From the NCBI GenBank assembly GCA_903828055.1, contig CAIKKP010000057.1:1-17587 (forward strand): a stretch of 17,587 nucleotides of DNA, read 5' to 3'. Below the pieces are notes generated by a model. The model worked only from the letters and a program-made list of their open reading frames with translations. It was not told the DNA's origin and did not search any database. This document shows, in pieces, positions 221-7,992 of the stretch (within the stretch, counting starts at the first letter, position 1; each line of letters opens with the position of its first letter). The position numbers were made by a program, and so were the translations under genes. The stretch is from an uncultured bacterium. Lineage in GTDB: Bacteria; Patescibacteriota; Andersenbacteria; UBA10190; CAIZMI01.

Positions 221-643
221 TTAAATCAAGCCGTCTTCTTTTTGTCCGGCGTTATCCTCCGGAAGGCTGGCGGTATTACAGTCGCGTTGTTCGTCTTTGA
301 AGGTGTCCCAAGCGCTTTTTTGGGATGCTTTAAAAGTTTTTCGTGATTCCAAACGGGAATTGCGGAATGTTTTCCAGGCGTTGTTAACCGCCTTTTTTCT
401 ATCTGAAATTGTTGTTTTGCCCCACGCATCTTTAAGTGCCGTTTGGCGAGTTCCCAACGCGTTTCTTACCGTAGTGTGATATGTGTCGTAGGCCGTGATG
501 CCTGCCGTCTCACGTTTGTTTACGGCGGATTGAATACAGGAAGCGCGAACAGGGTTCACGGTTCTCACCGCTTGTGCCGAAGTGGCAAGTAAACCGACTG
601 TCGCGATACCGACTCCAATTGTCGCCATTGCTATTTTTTTCAT
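221..643 (-). CDS. Small secreted or periplasmic protein of unknown function
   Basis: 140-aa ORF with N-terminal MKKIAMATIGVGIATVGLLATSAQA, which has a hydrophobic core and an AQA cleavage motif. A TATAAT-like -10 lies on the minus strand upstream, and the gene is followed by the 178-205 terminator. No recognisable domain. Confidence 0.55.
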   Translation of the reverse strand: MKKIAMATIGVGIATVGLLATSAQAVRTVNPVRASCIQSAVNKRETAGITAYDTYHTTVRNALGTRQTALKDAWGKTTISDRKKAVNNAWKTFRNSRLESRKTFKASQKSAWDTFKDEQRDCNTASLPEDNAGQKEDGLI

Positions 644-759
644 GTGTTTTGTCTTAATTATTAATCACCTTTGATGTGTTACCCCATTATATAGAAAAGT
701 GACGCATTGGAATACCGGTGCGAAAGTAACCGCCCACAGGTTAAGGCAAACAACGCATT

Positions 760-793
760 AAGGTCCGACTTTTGCAAAGGTCGGACCTTAATC
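760..793. promoter_or_regulatory. Perfect 12-bp inverted repeat with a 10-nt spacer in a divergent intergenic region
   Basis: ttaaggtccgac (760-771) is followed by 10 nt and then by gtcggaccttaa (782-793), its exact reverse complement. Confidence 0.4.
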
Positions 794-872
794 ACGAAAA
801 ACAGAACACAGCGGCAAAATTTGCTGATACAAACAAAATTCCTCAACCTGTGAGCGGTTACGTGCGAAAGAG

Positions 873-900
873 GTGACAGGATTAAAAAAAATGCTATAAT
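873..900 (+). promoter_or_regulatory. Sigma70-type promoter with an extended -10 box
   Basis: GTGACA (873-878), a 16-nt spacer, then TGcTATAAT (892-900). This sits 30 nt upstream of the ATG at 931, and the leader has no Shine-Dalgarno motif. Confidence 0.45.
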
Positions 901-930
901 AGTATTATTAAATCTAAATTAAATAAAACC

Positions 931-1257
931 ATGGACGCAGTACCACAAACACCCGTTACGCCAAATCCGGCTGACGACGTGCAAAAGAATAAAGCTCTAG
1001 CCGCTATTTCTTATATTTATATCGCCAGCTTGATCATCTTGTTGGTAAAAAAGGATAGTCCATTTGCGCAATTTCATGCAAAGCAGGGTTTCGTCTTGTT
1101 TATCGCCGCTTTGATTTGCGGATTTGTGCCGATTCTCGGTTGGTTATTGAGCATTGTTATTTTGGTTATGGCAATTATTGGAATCGTTTCGGCCGCGCAA
1201 GGCAAATGGTACAAAATGCCGTTGGTCTCCCAGTTGGCTGAAAAGATAAATTTCTAA
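931..1257 (+). CDS. DUF4870 (Tic20-like) family small membrane protein
   Basis: 108 aa with two predicted TM helices. Motifs AAISYIYIASLII...KKDSPFAQFHAKQGFVLFI and PILGWLLSIVILVMAII are characteristic of DUF4870 proteins. Confidence 0.7.
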   Translation: MDAVPQTPVTPNPADDVQKNKALAAISYIYIASLIILLVKKDSPFAQFHAKQGFVLFIAALICGFVPILGWLLSIVILVMAIIGIVSAAQGKWYKMPLVSQLAEKINF

Positions 1258-1275
1258 TTTAAAATGAAATTGTAA

Positions 1276-1360
1276 GGGAGCACGTTCTTGCTGTGTCGCT
1301 CCGTAGCTCAATAGAGCGAAGGGGGGTGCTCCCGTGCGGGCGGACTAGGACGTCCGCCCC
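1276..1360 (+). promoter_or_regulatory. GC-rich structured element of two tandem hairpins upstream of the pyk promoter
   Basis: gggagcac (1276-1283) pairs with gtgctccc about 42 nt later, enclosing an inner gctc-aata-gagc hairpin. A second hairpin follows at gggcggac...gtccgccc (about 1337-1360). The surrounding intergenic DNA is AT-rich. Confidence 0.3.
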
Positions 1361-1387
1361 TACGCGTTATAATTAAACTCAATCACC

Positions 1388-2815
1388 ATGTTAAAGCGCA
1401 CTAAAATCGTTTGCACAATCGGGCCCGCTTGTCAGTCGGAAGATAAATTATCGGCTATGATTAAGGCCGGGATGAACGTAGCGCGTCTTAATATGTCGCA
1501 CGGAACGTATGAGAATCATGCGCTCTTGATTCAGAATATTCGTAAAGCCTCGGAAAAGAATGGGGCGATTGTTGCATTACTGTTGGATTTGCAGGGTCCG
1601 AAAATTCGCGTCGGCAAATTGCCTGATGGTGGCGTAGAAATTAAGAAAGACGCGAAAATAATTCTCACCACCGGTACAGAAAAATATTCTGAAGGTGTAA
1701 TTCCGGTGCAGTTCAAGAATTTGCATAAAGATGTCAAAGAAGGTGATCGCATTTTATTGGATGATGGAAATTTGGAAGTGGCCGTTGAAAAGGTTGACGG
1801 CAGGGATATTTACTGTCGCATGATTATTGGTGGAAAGCTTATTTCGCATAAGGGAATTACTGTTCCAACTGCATCGTTGAGTACTTCCGCCTTGTCCAAA
1901 AAAGATAAGGAAGATTTGGTGTTTGGATTGAAACAGGGTGTTGATTTTGTCGCAATTTCCTTTGTTCGTCGTCCTTCCGATATTCGCGAATTGCGCGGTT
2001 TAATCAAAAAAGGATTACCCGATGGAATGGCAACACCGCTGATTATTTCCAAGATTGAAAAACATGAGGCATTGGTAAATTTGGATGAAATTATCGCGGA
2101 AACCGATGGTATTATGGTTGCTCGGGGCGACCTGGCACTGGAAACCAAGGCTTCCGAAGTTCCAATTTGGCAAAAGAGAATGATTCAAAAATGTTTGGAG
2201 GTTGCCAAACCGGTGATTACCGCGACGCAAATGTTAGATTCAATGACCAATGCGCCACGTCCCACACGTGCGGAAATTTCTGACGTGGCTAACGCGGTAA
2301 TAGATCACACGGACGCGACGATGCTTTCTCAGGAATCGGCGATGGGAAAATATCCGATAGAAACAGTAACAACAATGGCTGAGATCGCGCATTCTACCGA
2401 GGCTTCACCATTGGATGACATGGTTACTCTTCCTCCGCTTGATGGTACAGCTCCACCGGTATTGGCAATGAGCGCCGCCGCTTGTAGAGTGGCAAAAGAA
2501 GTCGGTGCCAAGGCCATATTTGTCATGAGTCGTACAGGGTTCACTGCTCGTTGTGTTTCTCGTCACCGTCCGCTTTTGCCTATCATTGTCGCAACCTCTG
2601 AGGCTTCTACGCGCAATCAGTTGGCGTTGAGTTGGGGGGTCGATCCATATTCTATCGAAAAATTCAGCGAGGCCAGGGAAGCCTGGGCGATTTTAGCTCC
2701 GGAATTGAAGAAAAAATATAAATTCAAAAAGGGTGATAAAATTATTGCTGTTTCCGGTTTAACGTCCAACCGCCATGGTGACTGGGACGAGTCGGTGCGT
2801 GTGTTTGAGGTGTAG
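1388..2815 (+). CDS. pyk: Pyruvate kinase
   Basis: 475 aa. N-terminal RTKIVCTIGPA, NVARLNMSHG, active-site MVARGDLA and the C-terminal regulatory-domain architecture are all present. TATAAT lies at 1368-1373. Confidence 0.95.
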   Translation: MLKRTKIVCTIGPACQSEDKLSAMIKAGMNVARLNMSHGTYENHALLIQNIRKASEKNGAIVALLLDLQGPKIRVGKLPDGGVEIKKDAKIILTTGTEKYSEGVIPVQFKNLHKDVKEGDRILLDDGNLEVAVEKVDGRDIYCRMIIGGKLISHKGITVPTASLSTSALSKKDKEDLVFGLKQGVDFVAISFVRRPSDIRELRGLIKKGLPDGMATPLIISKIEKHEALVNLDEIIAETDGIMVARGDLALETKASEVPIWQKRMIQKCLEVAKPVITATQMLDSMTNAPRPTRAEISDVANAVIDHTDATMLSQESAMGKYPIETVTTMAEIAHSTEASPLDDMVTLPPLDGTAPPVLAMSAAACRVAKEVGAKAIFVMSRTGFTARCVSRHRPLLPIIVATSEASTRNQLALSWGVDPYSIEKFSEAREAWAILAPELKKKYKFKKGDKIIAVSGLTSNRHGDWDESVRVFEV

Positions 2816-2886
2816 AAAAATAAATTATTTTATAAAATTTTCAGCAGGCCACCTAATCGTACTTTGTATTATTCATGGTGATTTTT

Positions 2887-2895
2887 TGCTATAAT
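2887..2895 (+). promoter_or_regulatory. Extended -10 box TGcTATAAT
   Basis: Same TGCTATAATA motif as at 892-901. It lies 26 nt upstream of the ATG at 2921, and the -35 is weak. Confidence 0.4.
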
Positions 2896-2920
2896 ATACT
2901 GGTCAATAATTAATATTTAT

Positions 2921-3856
2921 ATGCAAACAAAAACAAAGATCATATCGGTTATTGCGGTGGTTGTTGCGGTGGCGATAGTTTTGGCGTTCGCTATTAATCG
3001 GCCCATGGACAAAGAAATATATTCCTCATCAGATTATGATGTTACTGAGGAAAACATGATTGGTGGTCGGGCATTGCCACAATCATTAGTCGGAGTTGCT
3101 TCAGTGGAGAAAATTCAATCTTTTGCTGACAATTCGGGCGACAAGGCCTCATCTCAACAAAAACTGCAGTCCACTGAAAGATTAATTGTTCGTACCGGGC
3201 GACTGTCGGTTGTTTCTAATGATGTGCGAAAATCGGTCGGTGATATGTCGTCTTACGTTGTTGGTATCGGCGGTTTTGTGGTCAGTTCAAATGTGCAAGG
3301 AACGAATGATAATCCTTCTGCCACTTTGGAAGTTAGGGTTCCTGTCGACAAGTTTCAGGAATCGGTTGATAAGGCAAAAACTGCCGGCTTGCGCGTTACC
3401 AGCGAATCATTGACCGGCGAAGATGTGACGGAAGATTTTGTGGACACACAAGCGAGAATAAAAAATCTGCAGGCCAGTGAAATGCAGTTTTCTGAAATCA
3501 TGAAAAAAGCACAGAAAATCTCGGATGTATTGGAAGTACAACAACAACTTGAGCGAGTAAGAGGAGATATCGATGTCGCTCAAGGTCATGCGCAGTACTT
3601 AGAAAAATCTGCCAAGATGTCATCAATCACGATCTATTTTGCGACCGATGAAGCACAACTGCCGGTGGTGGATCCGGTAAATAATTGGAACCCGCTTACC
3701 ATTATCAAGAACGCATTCCGCTCTTTGGTTGGGTTGGCGCAGGGGTTGGGAACACTGGTAATCTGGTTGGTAATCTATCTCCCGCTTTGGGTATTAATCG
3801 CGGTAGTGGTTTACATCATAAAAAAAATAGTACGGCGTAATCAACAGCTAAAATAG
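2921..3856 (+). CDS. DUF4349 domain protein, a membrane-anchored envelope protein
   Basis: 311 aa with an N-terminal TM and two C-terminal TM helices. The central region carries LEVRVPVDKFQESVDKAKTAGLRVTSESLTGEDVTEDFVDTQARIKNLQASE...VLEVQQQLERVRGDID, which matches the conserved DUF4349 core including DVTEEYVD and RNL. Confidence 0.75.
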   Translation: MQTKTKIISVIAVVVAVAIVLAFAINRPMDKEIYSSSDYDVTEENMIGGRALPQSLVGVASVEKIQSFADNSGDKASSQQKLQSTERLIVRTGRLSVVSNDVRKSVGDMSSYVVGIGGFVVSSNVQGTNDNPSATLEVRVPVDKFQESVDKAKTAGLRVTSESLTGEDVTEDFVDTQARIKNLQASEMQFSEIMKKAQKISDVLEVQQQLERVRGDIDVAQGHAQYLEKSAKMSSITIYFATDEAQLPVVDPVNNWNPLTIIKNAFRSLVGLAQGLGTLVIWLVIYLPLWVLIAVVVYIIKKIVRRNQQLK

Positions 3857-3865
3857 CTATTGCCG

Positions 3866-3901
3866 AAAAAATGCCTCACCCGAAGAGTGAGGCATTTTTT
3901 A
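3866..3901. terminator. Bidirectional rho-independent terminator
   Basis: AAAAA, then stem atgcctcac (3871-3879), a 7-nt loop, stem gtgaggcat (3887-3895), then TTTTTT. It sits between the DUF4349 gene and the stop of the minus-strand recombinase ORF. Confidence 0.8.
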
Positions 3902-3913
3902 ATGGCAGGTTAG

Positions 3914-5554
3914 TTATTGCGGATCTGGTTCACAAGCGGTATGCTTTTGACGCGATAAATAAGCCAAGGAGAGGTGGCCGAGTGGTCGAAGGCGCGGCTC
4001 TCGAAAAGCCGTAGGGGCGCAAGCTTCTCGTGGGTTCGAATCCCACCCTCTCCGCCAGTTTGTACTTTTCGTAAAATCGTAGTCGGTTGCCTTCGCGCGT
4101 TGCGCTTCGGCGTGATATTTCGACGCGATTCGCCACGCGGGTTGGGGGGAAAACGACAACGACCGCTCGGCGATGCGGAAGTTCGAACCAATCTTTTTGA
4201 GAAAATCCCGTCCCGCGACGGGATTTTCTTGTTGAGCGATATTTTCGGCTTGGTTAGCCTCTTTTATGAAGTTTATCATCAGTTCGAACCGATTTTTGCT
4301 CTTTGTTCCAAAAGCGGAGATTTTCTCTTCTAAATCTTTTTTAGCAAGCATAAGTTTTTGTTTTTTCGCAACATATTCCATTTGTGATAAATTTCCGTCC
4401 AGTTGTAAATCAAGCAAACGATCAAGTTTTGTTTCTAGATCCACGAGTTCATCTCTCGTCTTTTGGACATGAAAGCTTTCCGCTTGGACGCCCTCCATTT
4501 TCTCTTTTTCAAATTCCGCAATACTCGCTTTTGCCCAACCGTCTGACAAAGAAACTTTTTTGATCACCTCCTTTATTTGAGAAGTGATGGCGTCCTCTCT
4601 CGCATACCTTTGTGTGCAAGGATTTTTCCGTTTCGTACATCGCAAATAGTTATGTCCTTTTTGCGTTTCAGTGGTAATGAAGCAACCGCACTCCCCGCAA
4701 CGGAAAAATCCTCTGTACACATAAGGTTTGAGTTTTGGCGTTTTCGGTTTTGATTTATTCATCATCACTTCTTGAACGGAATCAAAAAGCTTCTTTGTGA
4801 TAATCGGTTCATGCTTTCCGTCATACAGTTCATCGTTATATTCAATCATTCCGTAATAGATTTTGTTCTTAAGCATATATTGATAATTTGAGACGGAAAG
4901 CATTTTACCTTTCTTGCCAACCAAGCCTAGGGAATTGATCATCTTTCGCACTTGAGCAAGAGGATATTCACCAGTGGCGTACATTTCAAACGCCCGCTTG
5001 ATATACTTTGCCTTTTCTTTGTCCACGGCGATACAGCGAGCATTTTTATCGTTCACATAGCCCAATGGCGCCCAAGCGGGCCAGATGCCATTGCGTAACT
5101 TCTGGCGAATACCTCTCTTGATATTTTCCGACAGATTATCCACATAGTACTTTGATTGCCCAAAAGCGATTGATAACATAAATTTTCCCTGTGGTGTCGG
5201 ATCAAACCAAAAAGTAGGAAATTTTAGCGTGGTTATTTTCCCAGTATCTACCAGATAGATTATCCGTCCGCCGTCTATGGAATTGCGAGCTAAGCGGTCA
5301 GGGTGCCACGCTAAAATTCCTTCTGCTTCATTTTTCTCTATGCAAGAGATCATTTCGTTGAAAATATCTCTGCCCGGCTCTTTGGCGGTTTTACTTTCCA
5401 CAAACTCACGGACGATATTCAATCCTTCTTTTTTCGCAAATTCCCGCAATTCAAACATTTGCGCTTCAATACTCAAAACCTGCCTTTCAGGTTCGTCCGT
5501 GGATTTGCGGGCATAGAGAAAAATCTTTTTGGTTTGTAAATTTATGTTGTCCAT
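3914..5554 (-). CDS. Large serine recombinase with resolvase/invertase catalytic domain, recombinase domain and zinc ribbon
   Basis: The N-terminus YARKST...S has the catalytic Ser context of serine recombinases, followed by an RLARN motif. A CxxC...C...C zinc ribbon lies around residues 286-313 (FRCGECGCFITTETQKGHNYLRCTKRKNPC), and a coiled-coil region follows. Residues 1-456 are unique sequence. Residues 457-546 are encoded by repeat X and the antisense strand of the tRNA, so this is a probable read-through tail. Confidence 0.85.
   Translation of the reverse strand: MDNINLQTKKIFLYARKSTDEPERQVLSIEAQMFELREFAKKEGLNIVREFVESKTAKEPGRDIFNEMISCIEKNEAEGILAWHPDRLARNSIDGGRIIYLVDTGKITTLKFPTFWFDPTPQGKFMLSIAFGQSKYYVDNLSENIKRGIRQKLRNGIWPAWAPLGYVNDKNARCIAVDKEKAKYIKRAFEMYATGEYPLAQVRKMINSLGLVGKKGKMLSVSNYQYMLKNKIYYGMIEYNDELYDGKHEPIITKKLFDSVQEVMMNKSKPKTPKLKPYVYRGFFRCGECGCFITTETQKGHNYLRCTKRKNPCTQRYAREDAITSQIKEVIKKVSLSDGWAKASIAEFEKEKMEGVQAESFHVQKTRDELVDLETKLDRLLDLQLDGNLSQMEYVAKKQKLMLAKKDLEEKISAFGTKSKNRFELMINFIKEANQAENIAQQENPVAGRDFLKKIGSNFRIAERSLSFSPQPAWRIASKYHAEAQRAKATDYDFTKSTNWRRGWDSNPREACAPTAFREPRLRPLGHLSLAYLSRQKHTACEPDPQ
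3968..4057 (+). tRNA. tRNA-Ser with anticodon CGA; class II with a long variable arm and encoded CCA
   Basis: Acceptor GGAGAGG pairs with CCTCTCC. The D arm is GCCGAGTGGTCGAAGGCG. The anticodon stem cggct/agccg carries loop CTCGAAA, giving anticodon CGA. A 19-nt variable arm is followed by T arm GTGGG-TTCGAAT-CCCAC, discriminator G and CCA. It closely resembles canonical bacterial tRNA-Ser. Confidence 0.9.
4052..4185 (+). repeat. Inverted repeat X, copy 1 (134 bp, about 58 % GC)
   Basis: Exact reverse complement of 5618-5751, checked base by base (134 of 134). It begins with CCGCCA, the last 6 nt of the tRNA-Ser. Confidence 0.95.
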
Positions 5555-5585
5555 TCTTTATTTTTGGTTAGCTAAAAGATTGGTT

Positions 5586-5602
5586 GTATCGCCGTGCGAT
5601 AC
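5586..5602. promoter_or_regulatory. 7-bp perfect palindrome in the recombinase upstream leader
   Basis: gtatcgc-cgt-gcgatac lies between the recombinase start codon (5554) and repeat X' (5618). It is a candidate operator. Confidence 0.3.
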
Positions 5603-5617
5603 CCACGCATTGCGCGG

Positions 5618-5751
5618 CGAACTTCCGCATCGCCGAGCGGTCGTTGTCGTTTTCCCCCCAACCCGCGTGGCGAATCGCGTCGAAATATCACGCCGAAGCG
5701 CAACGCGCGAAGGCAACCGACTACGATTTTACGAAAAGTACAAACTGGCGG
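5618..5751 (-). repeat. Inverted repeat X, copy 2
   Basis: Reverse complement of 4052-4185 at 100 % identity. Confidence 0.95.
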
Positions 5752-5900
5752 GCGTTTTTGGACGAAGTTCGAACGTCGTTCGACGCAAACGCGTGACGCC
5801 CCCCCAGCAACGAAACGCGACGACGCCGATTCGTAACGCGAAAAAGGCATGGGAATAAATGAGTACTGTGTATTCTATAACGCAATCTTTATTTTTGCGA
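5748..5900 (+). repeat. Inverted repeat Y, copy 1 (153 bp)
   Basis: Reverse-complement match to 7675-7830 at about 94 % identity. The differences are C7 versus C9 in a homopolymer, a 12-nt divergent patch and one further substitution. It overlaps X' by 4 nt (GCGG). Confidence 0.9.
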
Positions 5901-5916
5901 CACGCCCTCTAAAAAT

Positions 5917-7638
5917 TCAAATAAAATTATTTAATTTTTTAGAAACAAAAAATGGTCCTATTGCTAAATACTTTATGTTTTTTGAATCAATAAAAGCTTC
6001 AATTGCTTGCCCTGGGTCATTAACGATCGGCAAGCCTTTAATATTGAACGATGTATTAATAATCAGAGGAATATTAGTTATATTTTCATATTCTTTTATG
6101 AGATCATAGTAAATACCATTATCATCGTTGTTTACTGTCTGAACTCGTACACTCCCATCAACATGTTGTGCTGCAGGTACTTTGTTACTGTATTCAGACT
6201 GTATTGCATCAACCAACAACATGTATGGCGATTTGGTTCCGCGTACCAGCCAATCTTTTGTTTTTTCTTCAAGAATAGAAATTGCAAAAGGACGAAATGA
6301 TTCCCTGTGTTTAGTTATGTTTAATTTTTCAATCATACTTTTATCAACGGCCGATGCAAGAATACTGCGCGCACCAAGAGCTCGGGGACCAAATTCTAAT
6401 CGTCCCTGAAACCACATAACGATTTCGCCCTCACTCAAAAGTCTGGCAACTTTTGTGTGAATTAAATTTTCCTTTGAATATGAAAATAAGTTTCCATGTT
6501 TCTTTAATTCATTTTCAATTTCCTTATTTGAGTACTCGGGGCCTAAATATGCATGACTAAACCGAACAGGTTTCTTTTCCTTGTTGAATTCTTGATGCAG
6601 TAAGTATTCCGCACCAATTGCTACACCTGCGTCATGCGATGCGGGCTGGATAAAAACCTCCTTGAATGGGGTTTTTTCTAAAATAAATCCATTTGTTACG
6701 GAATTCAAACAGACGCCACCAGCCATCACGAGTTTGCTTTTTTTTGTCTTATTATAAATATCATTTAGTTTTTCCAAAACTATCTCTTGTGTGTACTCTT
6801 GCCAAGTTGCCGCGACATCGAAATGGGCTTGCTTATATTGGCCTGATATGGCTGAAGGTTCGCCAATTAATTTTTCAAATTTCTCTGTTGGTTCTCCTTT
6901 GCAATCAGCTATTTTAAAATAAGAGGTATCTACATTTAGCCAGTCATTATCTTTTTCTGGAAAGAATTTCACAATATTTTTAAATTCACTCAAATATTTT
7001 GGCTTTCCAAGTGCAGCGAATGCCATCGTCGTGCCAGCCTTTTGCCAACCAGGCTCGAAACCGCAATATTCGCCTACTGCTCCCCAAACACATCCAATAG
7101 AATTGGGGTGATACAAAAATCCTTTTTGTTGTATTCCTTTTTTGTAATCAATTTGTCCCCACAAACTTGAATCATATTCTCCCCGCGCATCTATAGTTAA
7201 AAATGCGGCATCATCAAACCCCGAAGCATAAAATGCCGATGCGACATGTGCTTGGTGATGAATGTAAAATTTTATTTTTACGTTTGAAGAAAGTTTTCCG
7301 ATTCTCTTTTCAAAAAGATTAGCAATTGTTCTTAGTTGCCATAACTTTTTTAAGCTCTTTTTAAAAACGTAAAATGGCGGATGATATTGGAACAAGTATT
7401 CTTTAATAATTCGATTAAAAAATAGTTCTTTGGTGTCCCAACCTACGGCAACGCCTTTTAAATCTTTACTTGTAATGCCAGCCTTTTTGAAACAATATTT
7501 AATGGCATTTTCTGGAAAACCGGAATAATGTTTTTTTTGAGTAAATCGTTCTTCTTCAACTGCAACAATAATATTTCCCTCATCATCGATGAGGCAAGCA
7601 CTACTATCGTGTGAATAAGCATTTAGGCCAAGATACAT
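5917..7638 (-). CDS. Carbamoyltransferase of the NodU/CmcH family
   Basis: 573 aa. The N-terminus MYLGLNAYSHDSSACLIDDEGNIIVAVEEERFTQKKHYSGFP is the hallmark of NodU/CmcH/TobZ-type carbamoyltransferases, and the length is typical for the family. Confidence 0.9.
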   Translation of the reverse strand: MYLGLNAYSHDSSACLIDDEGNIIVAVEEERFTQKKHYSGFPENAIKYCFKKAGITSKDLKGVAVGWDTKELFFNRIIKEYLFQYHPPFYVFKKSLKKLWQLRTIANLFEKRIGKLSSNVKIKFYIHHQAHVASAFYASGFDDAAFLTIDARGEYDSSLWGQIDYKKGIQQKGFLYHPNSIGCVWGAVGEYCGFEPGWQKAGTTMAFAALGKPKYLSEFKNIVKFFPEKDNDWLNVDTSYFKIADCKGEPTEKFEKLIGEPSAISGQYKQAHFDVAATWQEYTQEIVLEKLNDIYNKTKKSKLVMAGGVCLNSVTNGFILEKTPFKEVFIQPASHDAGVAIGAEYLLHQEFNKEKKPVRFSHAYLGPEYSNKEIENELKKHGNLFSYSKENLIHTKVARLLSEGEIVMWFQGRLEFGPRALGARSILASAVDKSMIEKLNITKHRESFRPFAISILEEKTKDWLVRGTKSPYMLLVDAIQSEYSNKVPAAQHVDGSVRVQTVNNDDNGIYYDLIKEYENITNIPLIINTSFNIKGLPIVNDPGQAIEAFIDSKNIKYLAIGPFFVSKKLNNFI

Positions 7639-7674
7639 GGATATTGCATTAATGATCTGATCTTATAATAGTTC

Positions 7675-7830
7675 TTCGCAAAAATAAAGATTGCGTTATA
7701 GAATACACAGTACTCATTTATTCCCATGCCTTTTTCGCGCTACGAATCGGCGTCGTCGCGTTTCGTTGCTGGGGGGGGGCGTCACGCGTTGTCAGCGAAA
7801 CACGTTCGAACTTCGTCCAAAAACGCCCGC
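7675..7830 (-). repeat. Inverted repeat Y, copy 2 (155 bp)
   Basis: Reverse complement of 5748-5900. It ends with CCGC at the outer junction. Confidence 0.9.
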
Positions 7831-7839
7831 AAAATAATG

Positions 7840-7867
7840 AAACGCCCTTGTGGCGTTTTGTTATTTT
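7840..7867. terminator. Terminator-like hairpin
   Basis: aaacgcc (7840-7846) pairs with ggcgttt (7852-7858) around loop cttgt, followed by tgttatttt. It lies at the outer edge of repeat Y'. Confidence 0.35.
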
Positions 7868-7977
7868 GCCTGAGCAACCAACTGCTTGGTTGCGAGTGGG
7901 ATTCGAACGGTTCGCGTTGTCCAGCAGGACCGCGAACCGGTGGCCAGAAATTTGCAAATCATTGCAAGTTTCGAGGC

Positions 7978-7992
7978 CGAATCCCACCCTCT
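7978..7992 (+). repeat. Partial duplicate of the tRNA-Ser 3' segment, a candidate attR core
   Basis: 15 of 15 identity to 4037-4051, with mismatches on both flanks. An inverted partner, gtgggattcgaa, lies at 7897-7908. Confidence 0.4.

Follow-up and report, generated by a model that had tools for sequence, protein, structure and literature searches.

The stretch analysed here, hereafter the window, is the 17,587-nucleotide (nt) contig CAIKKP010000057.1 from an uncultured bacterium of the Andersenbacteria (Patescibacteriota). It carries on its minus strand a large serine recombinase (LSR) gene whose open reading frame (ORF) runs through a long repeat and on into the antisense strand of a tRNA-Ser(CGA) gene (Table 1). 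Codon 456 ends at position 4187, residues 457–501 are encoded by one arm, X, of an inverted repeat of 134 nt (X/X', 100% complementary, arms 4052–4185 and 5618–5751), residues 502–529 are the antisense of the tRNA and residues 530–546 are the antisense of the region upstream of it. Arm X includes the final 6 nt of the tRNA (CCGCCA), the complement of which is read as W500 (TGG) and R501 (CGG). A second inverted repeat, Y/Y', abuts X' and brackets a carbamoyltransferase gene. An earlier reading of the letters alone (the original prediction) had the ORF crossing the repeat and the antisense tRNA-Ser and ending just inside a bidirectional terminator region. We confirm both the coordinates and the read-through, and the stop codon (3914–3916) sits ~10–15 nt from a hairpin/T-run at ~3870–3900.

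The antisense-tRNA tail

At least 586 related loci were found among species-representative genomes, and 80 of these, drawn from numerous classes of Patescibacteria, from Elusimicrobia and from a handful of further groups, were fetched and compared with the window (81 loci in all). The ORF is fused to an antisense tRNA in 69 of the 81 loci, window included, and the read-through is therefore not a product of chance. The fused tRNA is tRNA-Ser in 66 loci (anticodons GGA, GCT, TGA and CGA), tRNA-Asp in two and tRNA-Glu in one, and the fusion point lies at TGG-CGG (W500–R501). The distance from gene start to tRNA 3' end is 1497 nt in most loci, including the window, and ~1488–1552 nt across clades. 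A minority clade (L057, L061, L066) is fused to antisense tRNA-Asp or tRNA-Glu, not tRNA-Ser, which indicates a target switch.

All three codon positions past CGG show equal diversity, at 0.40/0.42/0.42 in the clade of at least 79% identity and 0.52/0.48/0.51 in a second clade, and the first stop in relatives falls anywhere from 2 to 131 codons downstream. The equal codon-position diversity and the scattered stops show that residues 502–546 are translated tRNA complement and not a domain; the tRNA-derived part is thus non-native, as had been predicted. The original prediction also held that homologues matching residues 457–546 would make the tail a real domain. A match was indeed found, with homologues of 58–97% identity covering 92–98% of the query in a protein search and the alignment reading ...KKIGSNFRIAxRTLxxxLKNxW...NWR, followed in most homologues by RxRDSNPR...PLxHLS. 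Over residues 502–546, however, homologues match only because all are fused to conserved antisense tRNA-Ser. Of the 120 protein clusters closest to the query, ~70 terminate in antisense-tRNA sequence (RDSNPR...) and ~22 in a different, native tail, and the annotated C-termini of the ~70 are artefacts of the integrated state described below.

The recombinase and its native C-terminus

The window protein is an LSR, with a serine-nucleophile catalytic domain and a zinc ribbon with an inserted coiled coil. Its Pfam domains are Resolvase, Recombinase and Zn_ribbon_recom. The catalytic domain (PF00239, E 1.2e-20) spans residues 12–157, with Y14, R16 and S18 invariant across 30 homologues, and PF07508 and PF13408 are present, with cysteines C286, C289, C306 and C313 invariant. 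A PDB sequence search with the window protein reached residue 292 only and did not place the C-terminus. We therefore turn for the C-terminus to an AlphaFold2 (AF2) model of P0001, a native-tail homologue 97% identical to the window protein, made with an alignment of 19 native-tail sequences. The model, with a mean predicted local distance difference test (pLDDT) score of 73, gave full-length Foldseek matches to the SPbeta, LI, Bxb1 and phiC31 integrases (E 1e-10 to 2e-16). Helices at 338–434 and a helix at 445–455 are followed by the beta-hairpin strands 456–462 and 465–470 (pLDDT 82–89) and then by helices 472–487 and 494–513, the last of which spans the crossover defined below.

The original prediction had placed the end of the unique coding sequence at residue 456 and had the repeat either replacing the native 3' end of the gene or being selected to stay open in this frame; the comparison contradicts both an end at 456 and a replacement. 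Residues 457–501 are conserved in homologues of 53–97% identity, no homologue has a stop near codon 456, and codons 457–480 have a third-to-first/second-position diversity ratio of 2.1, versus 1.9 in the adjacent gene body. Since they are conserved, show coding-type substitution and are predicted to form a beta-hairpin and helices, residues 457–501 are shown to be a native, structured part of the enzyme's C-terminal region.

The inverted spare gene end

The repeated arm extends from gene nt ~1370–1400 through 6 nt into the tRNA, and an inverted copy of it lies just upstream of the start codon in nearly all loci with enough upstream DNA, at a spacing of 10–250 nt in relatives. Inverted arms of at least 100 nt (101–226 nt) occur in 54 loci; identity between the arms of a pair is 100% in 19 cases, at least 97% in 36 and below 93% in 13. 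Outside the upstream arm the frame continues in every clade, for example as NWR followed by CFLDEVRTFFEQNPx-stop (motif xFLDEVRTFFEQNPx-stop), and the sequence of this tail covaries with the recombinase clade. All 44 of the 44 spare copies reach a stop 14–19 codons past CGG, and the codon-position diversity of the tail (0.116/0.092/0.328) is of the coding type. When the gene body is joined to this upstream arm with its tail, ORFs of 515–536 aa result, the native form in the window being a 515-aa LSR. The upstream copy X' with its tail is an inverted duplicate of the gene end that keeps the true last 14 codons and stop, and arm X is the native end and not a replacement by a repeat. In the window, ORF 5584..5796 on the plus strand repeats residues 458–501 and then reads AFLDEVRTSFDANA-stop. 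This is the relevant mirror frame of the other repeat copy; the ORF that the original prediction had cited (5594–5836) lies in a different frame.

Assembly artefact was considered as a source of the inverted repeats and rejected, as they occur in more than 50 assemblies from several pipelines (by record names) and the arms are often only 83–97% identical. Many contigs end within the spare arm and tail or shortly after them, 100–600 nt upstream of the start of the recombinase gene, which fits assembly failure at a tail repeat that exceeds the assemblers' k-mer in length. A GC-rich hairpin of variable sequence, such as CCGTGC-TTT-GCACGG, lies against the inner end of the spare arm in most loci (5590–5617 in the window). 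The window's arm and tail have a GC content of ~55–58% (4052–4185, 5618–5900 and 7676–7830), versus ~37–43% in the gene body and host, and the amino acids of its arm (SFSPQPAWRIAS...) and tail (AFLDEVRTSFDANA) diverge from the family consensus. Its two tail copies differ non-synonymously (TSFDANA versus TCFADNA). In L016 and L075 the inverted repeat spans the whole tRNA-Ser, so that a tRNA-Ser lies on both sides of the recombinase unit; the tRNA copies are 92–96% identical and their anticodons differ in L075. This suggests that both attachment-site copies have recombined with tRNA-Ser genes in these two loci, implying chromosomal rearrangement.

Crossover junctions and the probable integrated element

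Three junctions were compared in the window and in ~17 other loci: that between the arm and the antisense tRNA (J1), that between the spare arm and the tail (J2) and that between the host flank and a distal tail (J3). The distal tail is a second tail in opposite orientation; in ~20 loci whose flanks are long it lies 1.8–5.4 kb upstream of the gene. The flanks past J3 are host-specific and show no relationship from one locus to another; in L049 a tRNA-Arg gene supplies the flank with its 5' end, so that the element is inserted between tRNA-Ser and tRNA-Arg. The minimal overlap of J1, J2 and J3 is GCGG (CCGC in the tRNA, C71–C74). As the junctions share nothing more, the crossover lies inside the ORF, in codons W500–R501, and the earlier claim that a recombination site overlaps the recombinase 3' end in an unusual form stands. 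Crossover at a TTCGAA motif or at the inner arm boundary was rejected: the inner boundary shifts by ~30 nt between clades and the outer GCGG overlap is constant.

The junction pattern bears the signature, at the level of sequence, of conservative site-specific recombination between an element attachment site (attP, arm-GCGG-tail) and a target site (attB, tRNA-Ser...CTCT-CCGC-flank). It is very probable that ~4056–7830 is a 3.8-kb integrated element (~3775 nt inserted) encoding an LSR with attP inside its own coding sequence. The element is inserted between G73 of tRNA-Ser(CGA) and the hairpin/T-run at 7840–7868, which is probably the original tRNA-Ser terminator, displaced 3.8 kb by the insertion.

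The cargo between the tails differs in every locus and includes a GmrSD-like nuclease, type III restriction-modification genes, an FAD oxidase and unknown membrane proteins. An XRE-type helix-turn-helix (HTH) gene of 67–69 aa lies ~300–500 nt downstream of the native tail in intact-gene contigs only and was seen in L081, L089 and L090–L095; it is absent from the window element. The search found no demonstrably circular contig; in L007 both arm-tail sites are intact, and the contig ends there. Relatives are almost absent from IMG/VR, which yielded seven related loci, all weak or partial; this is not a typical phage integrase. Rfam searches, at gathering and permissive thresholds, detected the tRNA alone, X and Y matching no known RNA family, and a sigma-70 promoter scan gave in Y and Y' only weak matches, not strong enough for use.

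Table 1. Features of the probable integrated element and its target in the window.
Feature	Position	Strand	Remarks
LSR ORF, integrated state	3914..5554	-	546 aa: 501 native + 45 fused residues
Non-native tail, codons 502–546 + stop	3914..4051	-	antisense tRNA-Ser, then antisense of tRNA upstream region
tRNA-Ser(CGA)	3968..4057	+	integration target, B half of attB; ARAGORN; Rfam tRNA 59.5 bits
Junction J1, crossover overlap CCGC	4052..4055	.	coding strand GCGG inside codons W500–R501; tRNA C71–C74
Arm X, codons 457–501 (SNFRIAERSL...TKSTNWR)	4052..4186	-	native C-terminal region, P half of attP
Single-copy gene body, codons 1–456	4187..5554	-	between repeat arms
12-bp hairpin, codons ~443–452	4201..4228	.	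inside coding sequence; terminator-like match on + strand
Spacer, start codon to spare arm X'	5555..5617	-	with GC-rich hairpin abutting arm
Arm X', inverted spare copy of codons 457–501	5618..5751	+	100% complementary to X
Junction J2, GCGG between spare arm and native tail	5748..5751	.	intact attP-like site, inverted orientation
Repeat Y, tail + ~100 nt past stop	5748..5900	+	one arm of second inverted repeat
Native tail, true last 14 codons (AFLDEVRTSFDANA) + stop	5752..5796	+	in frame with X'; stop 5794–5796
Cargo gene, carbamoyltransferase, 573 aa	5917..7638	-	Pfam Carbam_trans_N + Carbam_trans_C
Repeat Y', displaced tail (AFLDEVRTCFADNA-stop, - strand)	7676..7830	-	far element end, P' half of attP
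Junction J3, CCGC between displaced tail and host flank	7827..7830	.	end of inserted DNA
Hairpin + T-run just past J3	7840..7868	+	terminator-like hairpin 7840–7858 called on - strand; T-run also on + strand

Isomers and rearrangements in relatives

In contig L089, host genes are followed by a tRNA-Ser(GCT) on the same strand, then by CCGC and a reverse-complemented arm; 12 nt later an ATG opens the gene, which runs on into the arm and the native tail, with the HTH gene beyond. This contig is the predicted other state, and an isomer with an intact gene exists in nature. L081 matches the window at 100% identity over the upstream arm and the gene body (the latter to ~codon 461), starts exactly at CCGCCA and continues from the gene into a different arm variant (~65% identity), the native tail and the HTH gene. 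Intact genes are also found in L007, L015 and L048. In assembled genomes the interrupted state outnumbers the intact-gene state by 69 to 3, an excess that would fit a lower stability of intact-gene integrants. The switch away from 100% identity with the window in L081/L089 occurs at the inner arm boundary, and arms and tails seem to be exchanged between elements as modules.

Inversion polymorphism occurs in the family: L090 and L099 are the same element from two samples, 99.9% identical, with the 9.4-kb cargo inverted and the breakpoint in a 56-nt inverted repeat located 270–320 nt past the core. The far end of L099 (11499–11620) has no recombinase; there, the post-tail region, in reverse complement, joins at a shared CAAAATCC onto the terminal ~30 nt of an arm and, beyond these, antisense tRNA-Ser, and this end looks like a deletion derivative of a resident element. 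L015 (−424..7500) reads gene1, arm, core, tail, a 4.1-kb cargo, reverse-complemented tail, core, reverse-complemented arm2, gene2, arm2, core and antisense tRNA-Ser, with the two recombinase paralogues at 73–76% nucleotide identity; modules seem to accumulate in series at one tRNA.

Proposed mechanism

In the scheme that we propose, the P half of attP would be arm X, with the ~45 native codons that precede the crossover, and the P' half would be the final 14 codons and stop. Recombination with attB (...CTCT-CCGC-aaaataatg) would join the gene to the antisense tRNA and send the tail to the far end (Y'); 45 meaningless codons would replace the native 14, and the ORF would stop wherever the antisense strand happened to supply a stop. 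The empty tRNA-Ser locus would be expected to read ...CTCTCCGC-AAAATAATG... / ...CTCTCCGC-AAAATAATGAAACG..., and the second, inverted copy of arm and tail, upstream of the gene, would stay intact after integration. Integration, as reconstructed from the compared loci, is shown to swap the last 14–19 native codons for an arbitrary extension with an intact inverted gene end retained.

The swap would cut the predicted C-terminal helix 494–513 at residue 501 and, to judge from the model, may alter activity, directionality or stability. By analogy with the archaeal 'suicidal' integrases discussed below, the enzyme made from the excised form would differ from that made from the integrated form. The spare inverted site would permit integration via either site, or later inversion, and either route would produce an isomer whose gene is intact, follows the tRNA directly and runs in the same direction as the tRNA. 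We tentatively suggest, as a possibility that we hold to be somewhat short of probable, that the element is a bacterial serine counterpart of the 'suicidal' integrases with a rescue device: integration would replace the helix and alter or switch off the enzyme without a separate directionality factor, and the spare copy would give an isomer with an intact gene downstream of the tRNA promoter, re-arming excision.

Large serine integrases are major genome-engineering tools and their directionality control is taken to need a separate factor; a family whose members rewrite their own C-terminus upon integration would provide a self-contained, testable alternative. It would also extend self-interrupting integrases from archaeal tyrosine to bacterial serine recombinases. 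The elements are widespread and carry cargo in Patescibacteria and Elusimicrobia, where mobile elements are poorly known, and some relatives carry restriction/defence genes.

Comparison with known systems

The integrases of phiC31, Bxb1, A118/LI, SPbeta and TP901-1 share the domain architecture and match the full-length fold, and phage LSRs follow the same conservative attP x attB logic, with two hybrid junctions and a very short shared overlap. Unlike in the phage systems, attP here lies inside the integrase ORF and the C-terminus is rewritten by integration, there is always an inverted second attP-like copy and no apparent directionality factor gene, and integration targets the very 3' end of tRNA-Ser genes, whatever their anticodon.

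As in Hin, the recombinase gene sits between inverted repeats; Hin-type enzymes are small serine recombinases that act at 26-bp sites with an enhancer. Unlike the small invertases Hin, Gin and Cin, with their C-terminal HTH and ~26-bp sites, the enzyme here is a 515-aa LSR and the arms are 120–134 nt. The yeast 2-micron circle is divided by two long inverted repeats into flippable segments, on a replicating plasmid whose recombinase, FLP, is a tyrosine recombinase, and a circular form of the present element would likewise be split by two long inverted repeats into mutually flippable segments. Broussard et al. are said to have described, in 2013, an integration-dependent immunity in mycobacteriophages in which attP lies inside the repressor gene and the integrases are tyrosine recombinases. 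In that switch, as here, integration changes the C-terminus of an element-encoded protein, the repressor there and the integrase here.

The 'suicidal' integrases of the SSV1, pTN3 and pT26-2 types are described in a review as exclusively archaeal tyrosine recombinases whose gene contains the attachment site, so that integration, often into a tRNA gene, splits off the 3' part and the gene is intact in the excised form only; the review argues that gene splitting can itself act as directionality control (PMC8371274). An attachment site in the integrase gene and interruption of the gene by integration are shared with the present family. In the 'suicidal' type, however, the gene is split into large N- and C-terminal fragments, whereas here 14–19 codons are removed and a spare inverted end is carried; moreover, the former is a Phage_integr_3 tyrosine recombinase of archaeal hosts and the latter a serine recombinase of Patescibacteria, Elusimicrobia and other bacteria. 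Tycheposons are small tRNA-targeting elements of marine bacteria with variable cargo, most with tyrosine recombinases and a minority with large serine recombinases (bioRxiv 10.1101/2020.12.28.424599). Integration at a tRNA gene and variable cargo are features that tycheposons have in common with our element, but the text consulted mentions no attP inside a gene and no inverted spare copy of a gene end (bioRxiv 10.1101/2020.12.28.424599). Our literature search turned up no account of a serine integrase combining an intragenic attP with an inverted spare gene end, and the inverted spare gene end appears to be undescribed.

Alternative interpretations

Two other readings concern the end of the gene. 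If the native gene ended at residue 456, with a foreign repeat X having replaced its 3' end or merely staying open, one would understand why single-copy sequence does end at codon 456, why the window arm is unusually GC-rich with amino acids off the family consensus, and how L081 comes to have the same gene body joined to a different arm variant. Residues 457–501 nevertheless align in all homologues down to 53% identity, the substitution pattern in codons 457–480 is of the coding type, the strands within 456–470 are predicted at pLDDT 82–89 and no homologue stops near 456, and we regard this origin as highly improbable. Even less credence is due to the idea that the whole 90-residue tail, antisense-tRNA part included, is a genuine conserved domain. 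The coverage of 92–98% of the query by homologues, RRGxDSNPR...PLxHLS included, speaks for it, yet this similarity is the antisense of the conserved T-arm and acceptor stem of tRNA-Ser; the antisense tail has equally diverse codon positions and stops 2–131 codons past the junction, and ~22 of the 120 clusters carry an alternative conserved tail with a fixed stop.

Two further readings keep the native C-terminus and differ over what the repeats do. The recombinase gene sits between inverted repeats, both orientations of the gene relative to the tRNA exist (in different genomes) and the cargo is inverted between L090 and L099, all as might be expected of what is mainly an invertible switch, like the Salmonella Hin segment, that flips its own gene or cargo and for which mobility is secondary. 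We think this unlikely: proteins 82–87% identical lie beside four tRNA-Ser isoacceptors in separate candidate phyla, where neither the flanks nor the cargo are related, the logic of J1 and J3 is that of integration, the interrupted state dominates, and no orientation polymorphism of the gene segment was seen within any one strain. An insertion sequence (IS)-like transposon consisting of the gene and two arms, the arms being terminal inverted repeats and Y, cargo and Y' unrelated neighbours, would account for near-perfect 120–134-nt repeats that bracket a single recombinase gene, for the many contigs that break just upstream of the gene and for the presence of tRNA-Ser on both sides in L016 and L075. 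It is very unlikely, however, in view of a tail that continues the ORF past the upstream arm, covaries with clade and recurs beyond the cargo, and of a host-specific flank that starts only after the distal tail.

The reading that we prefer, an integrated element with attP inside the recombinase gene, also has observations weighing against it. The exact 2-bp crossover position within GCGG is not fixable, and codons 481–497, with a diversity ratio of 1.4, are under weak coding-type constraint. The reconstructed empty site CCCTCTCCGCAAAATAATGAAACGCC has no exact match (0) in JGI metagenomes, the search for a circular form or opposite orientation of the window element found neither, and all seven contigs of the window's genome are in the same state. 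No recombination directionality factor was identified, nor any conserved small or accessory gene among the locus cargoes. The two arms of L081 and of L089 differ by ~35%, and simple flipping between identical arms does not explain them. With its breakpoint off the core, the L090/L099 inversion may reflect homologous recombination rather than catalysis by the recombinase.

A hairpin within the coding sequence and possible relics of earlier insertions

The hairpin at 4201–4228 has a perfect stem of 12–13 bp, lies ~25 nt inside the arm boundary and is found at the same position in L001–L025 and L038–L080. In two clades the pairing is maintained by at least nine different stems (z −5 to −7), and the residues encoded by the hairpin vary (NPVAGRDF, NPERIRDF, TNEENLHLF, IPEEILREF). 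It lies between an A-run and a T-run, and is absent in the Elusimicrobia clade and the tRNA-Asp clade. The hairpin may terminate read-through from the tRNA now that the tRNA's own terminator has been displaced, or may be a regulatory element.

At 7964–7992 on the plus strand, past the element's far end, the 3' half of tRNA-Ser recurs as a decayed direct copy (score 37 versus 19 ± 3 in shuffles), and a weaker stretch at 7887–7908 resembles the arm/antisense-tRNA junction. Both remnants, ~60–160 nt beyond the element end, may be relics of earlier insertions at the same tRNA.

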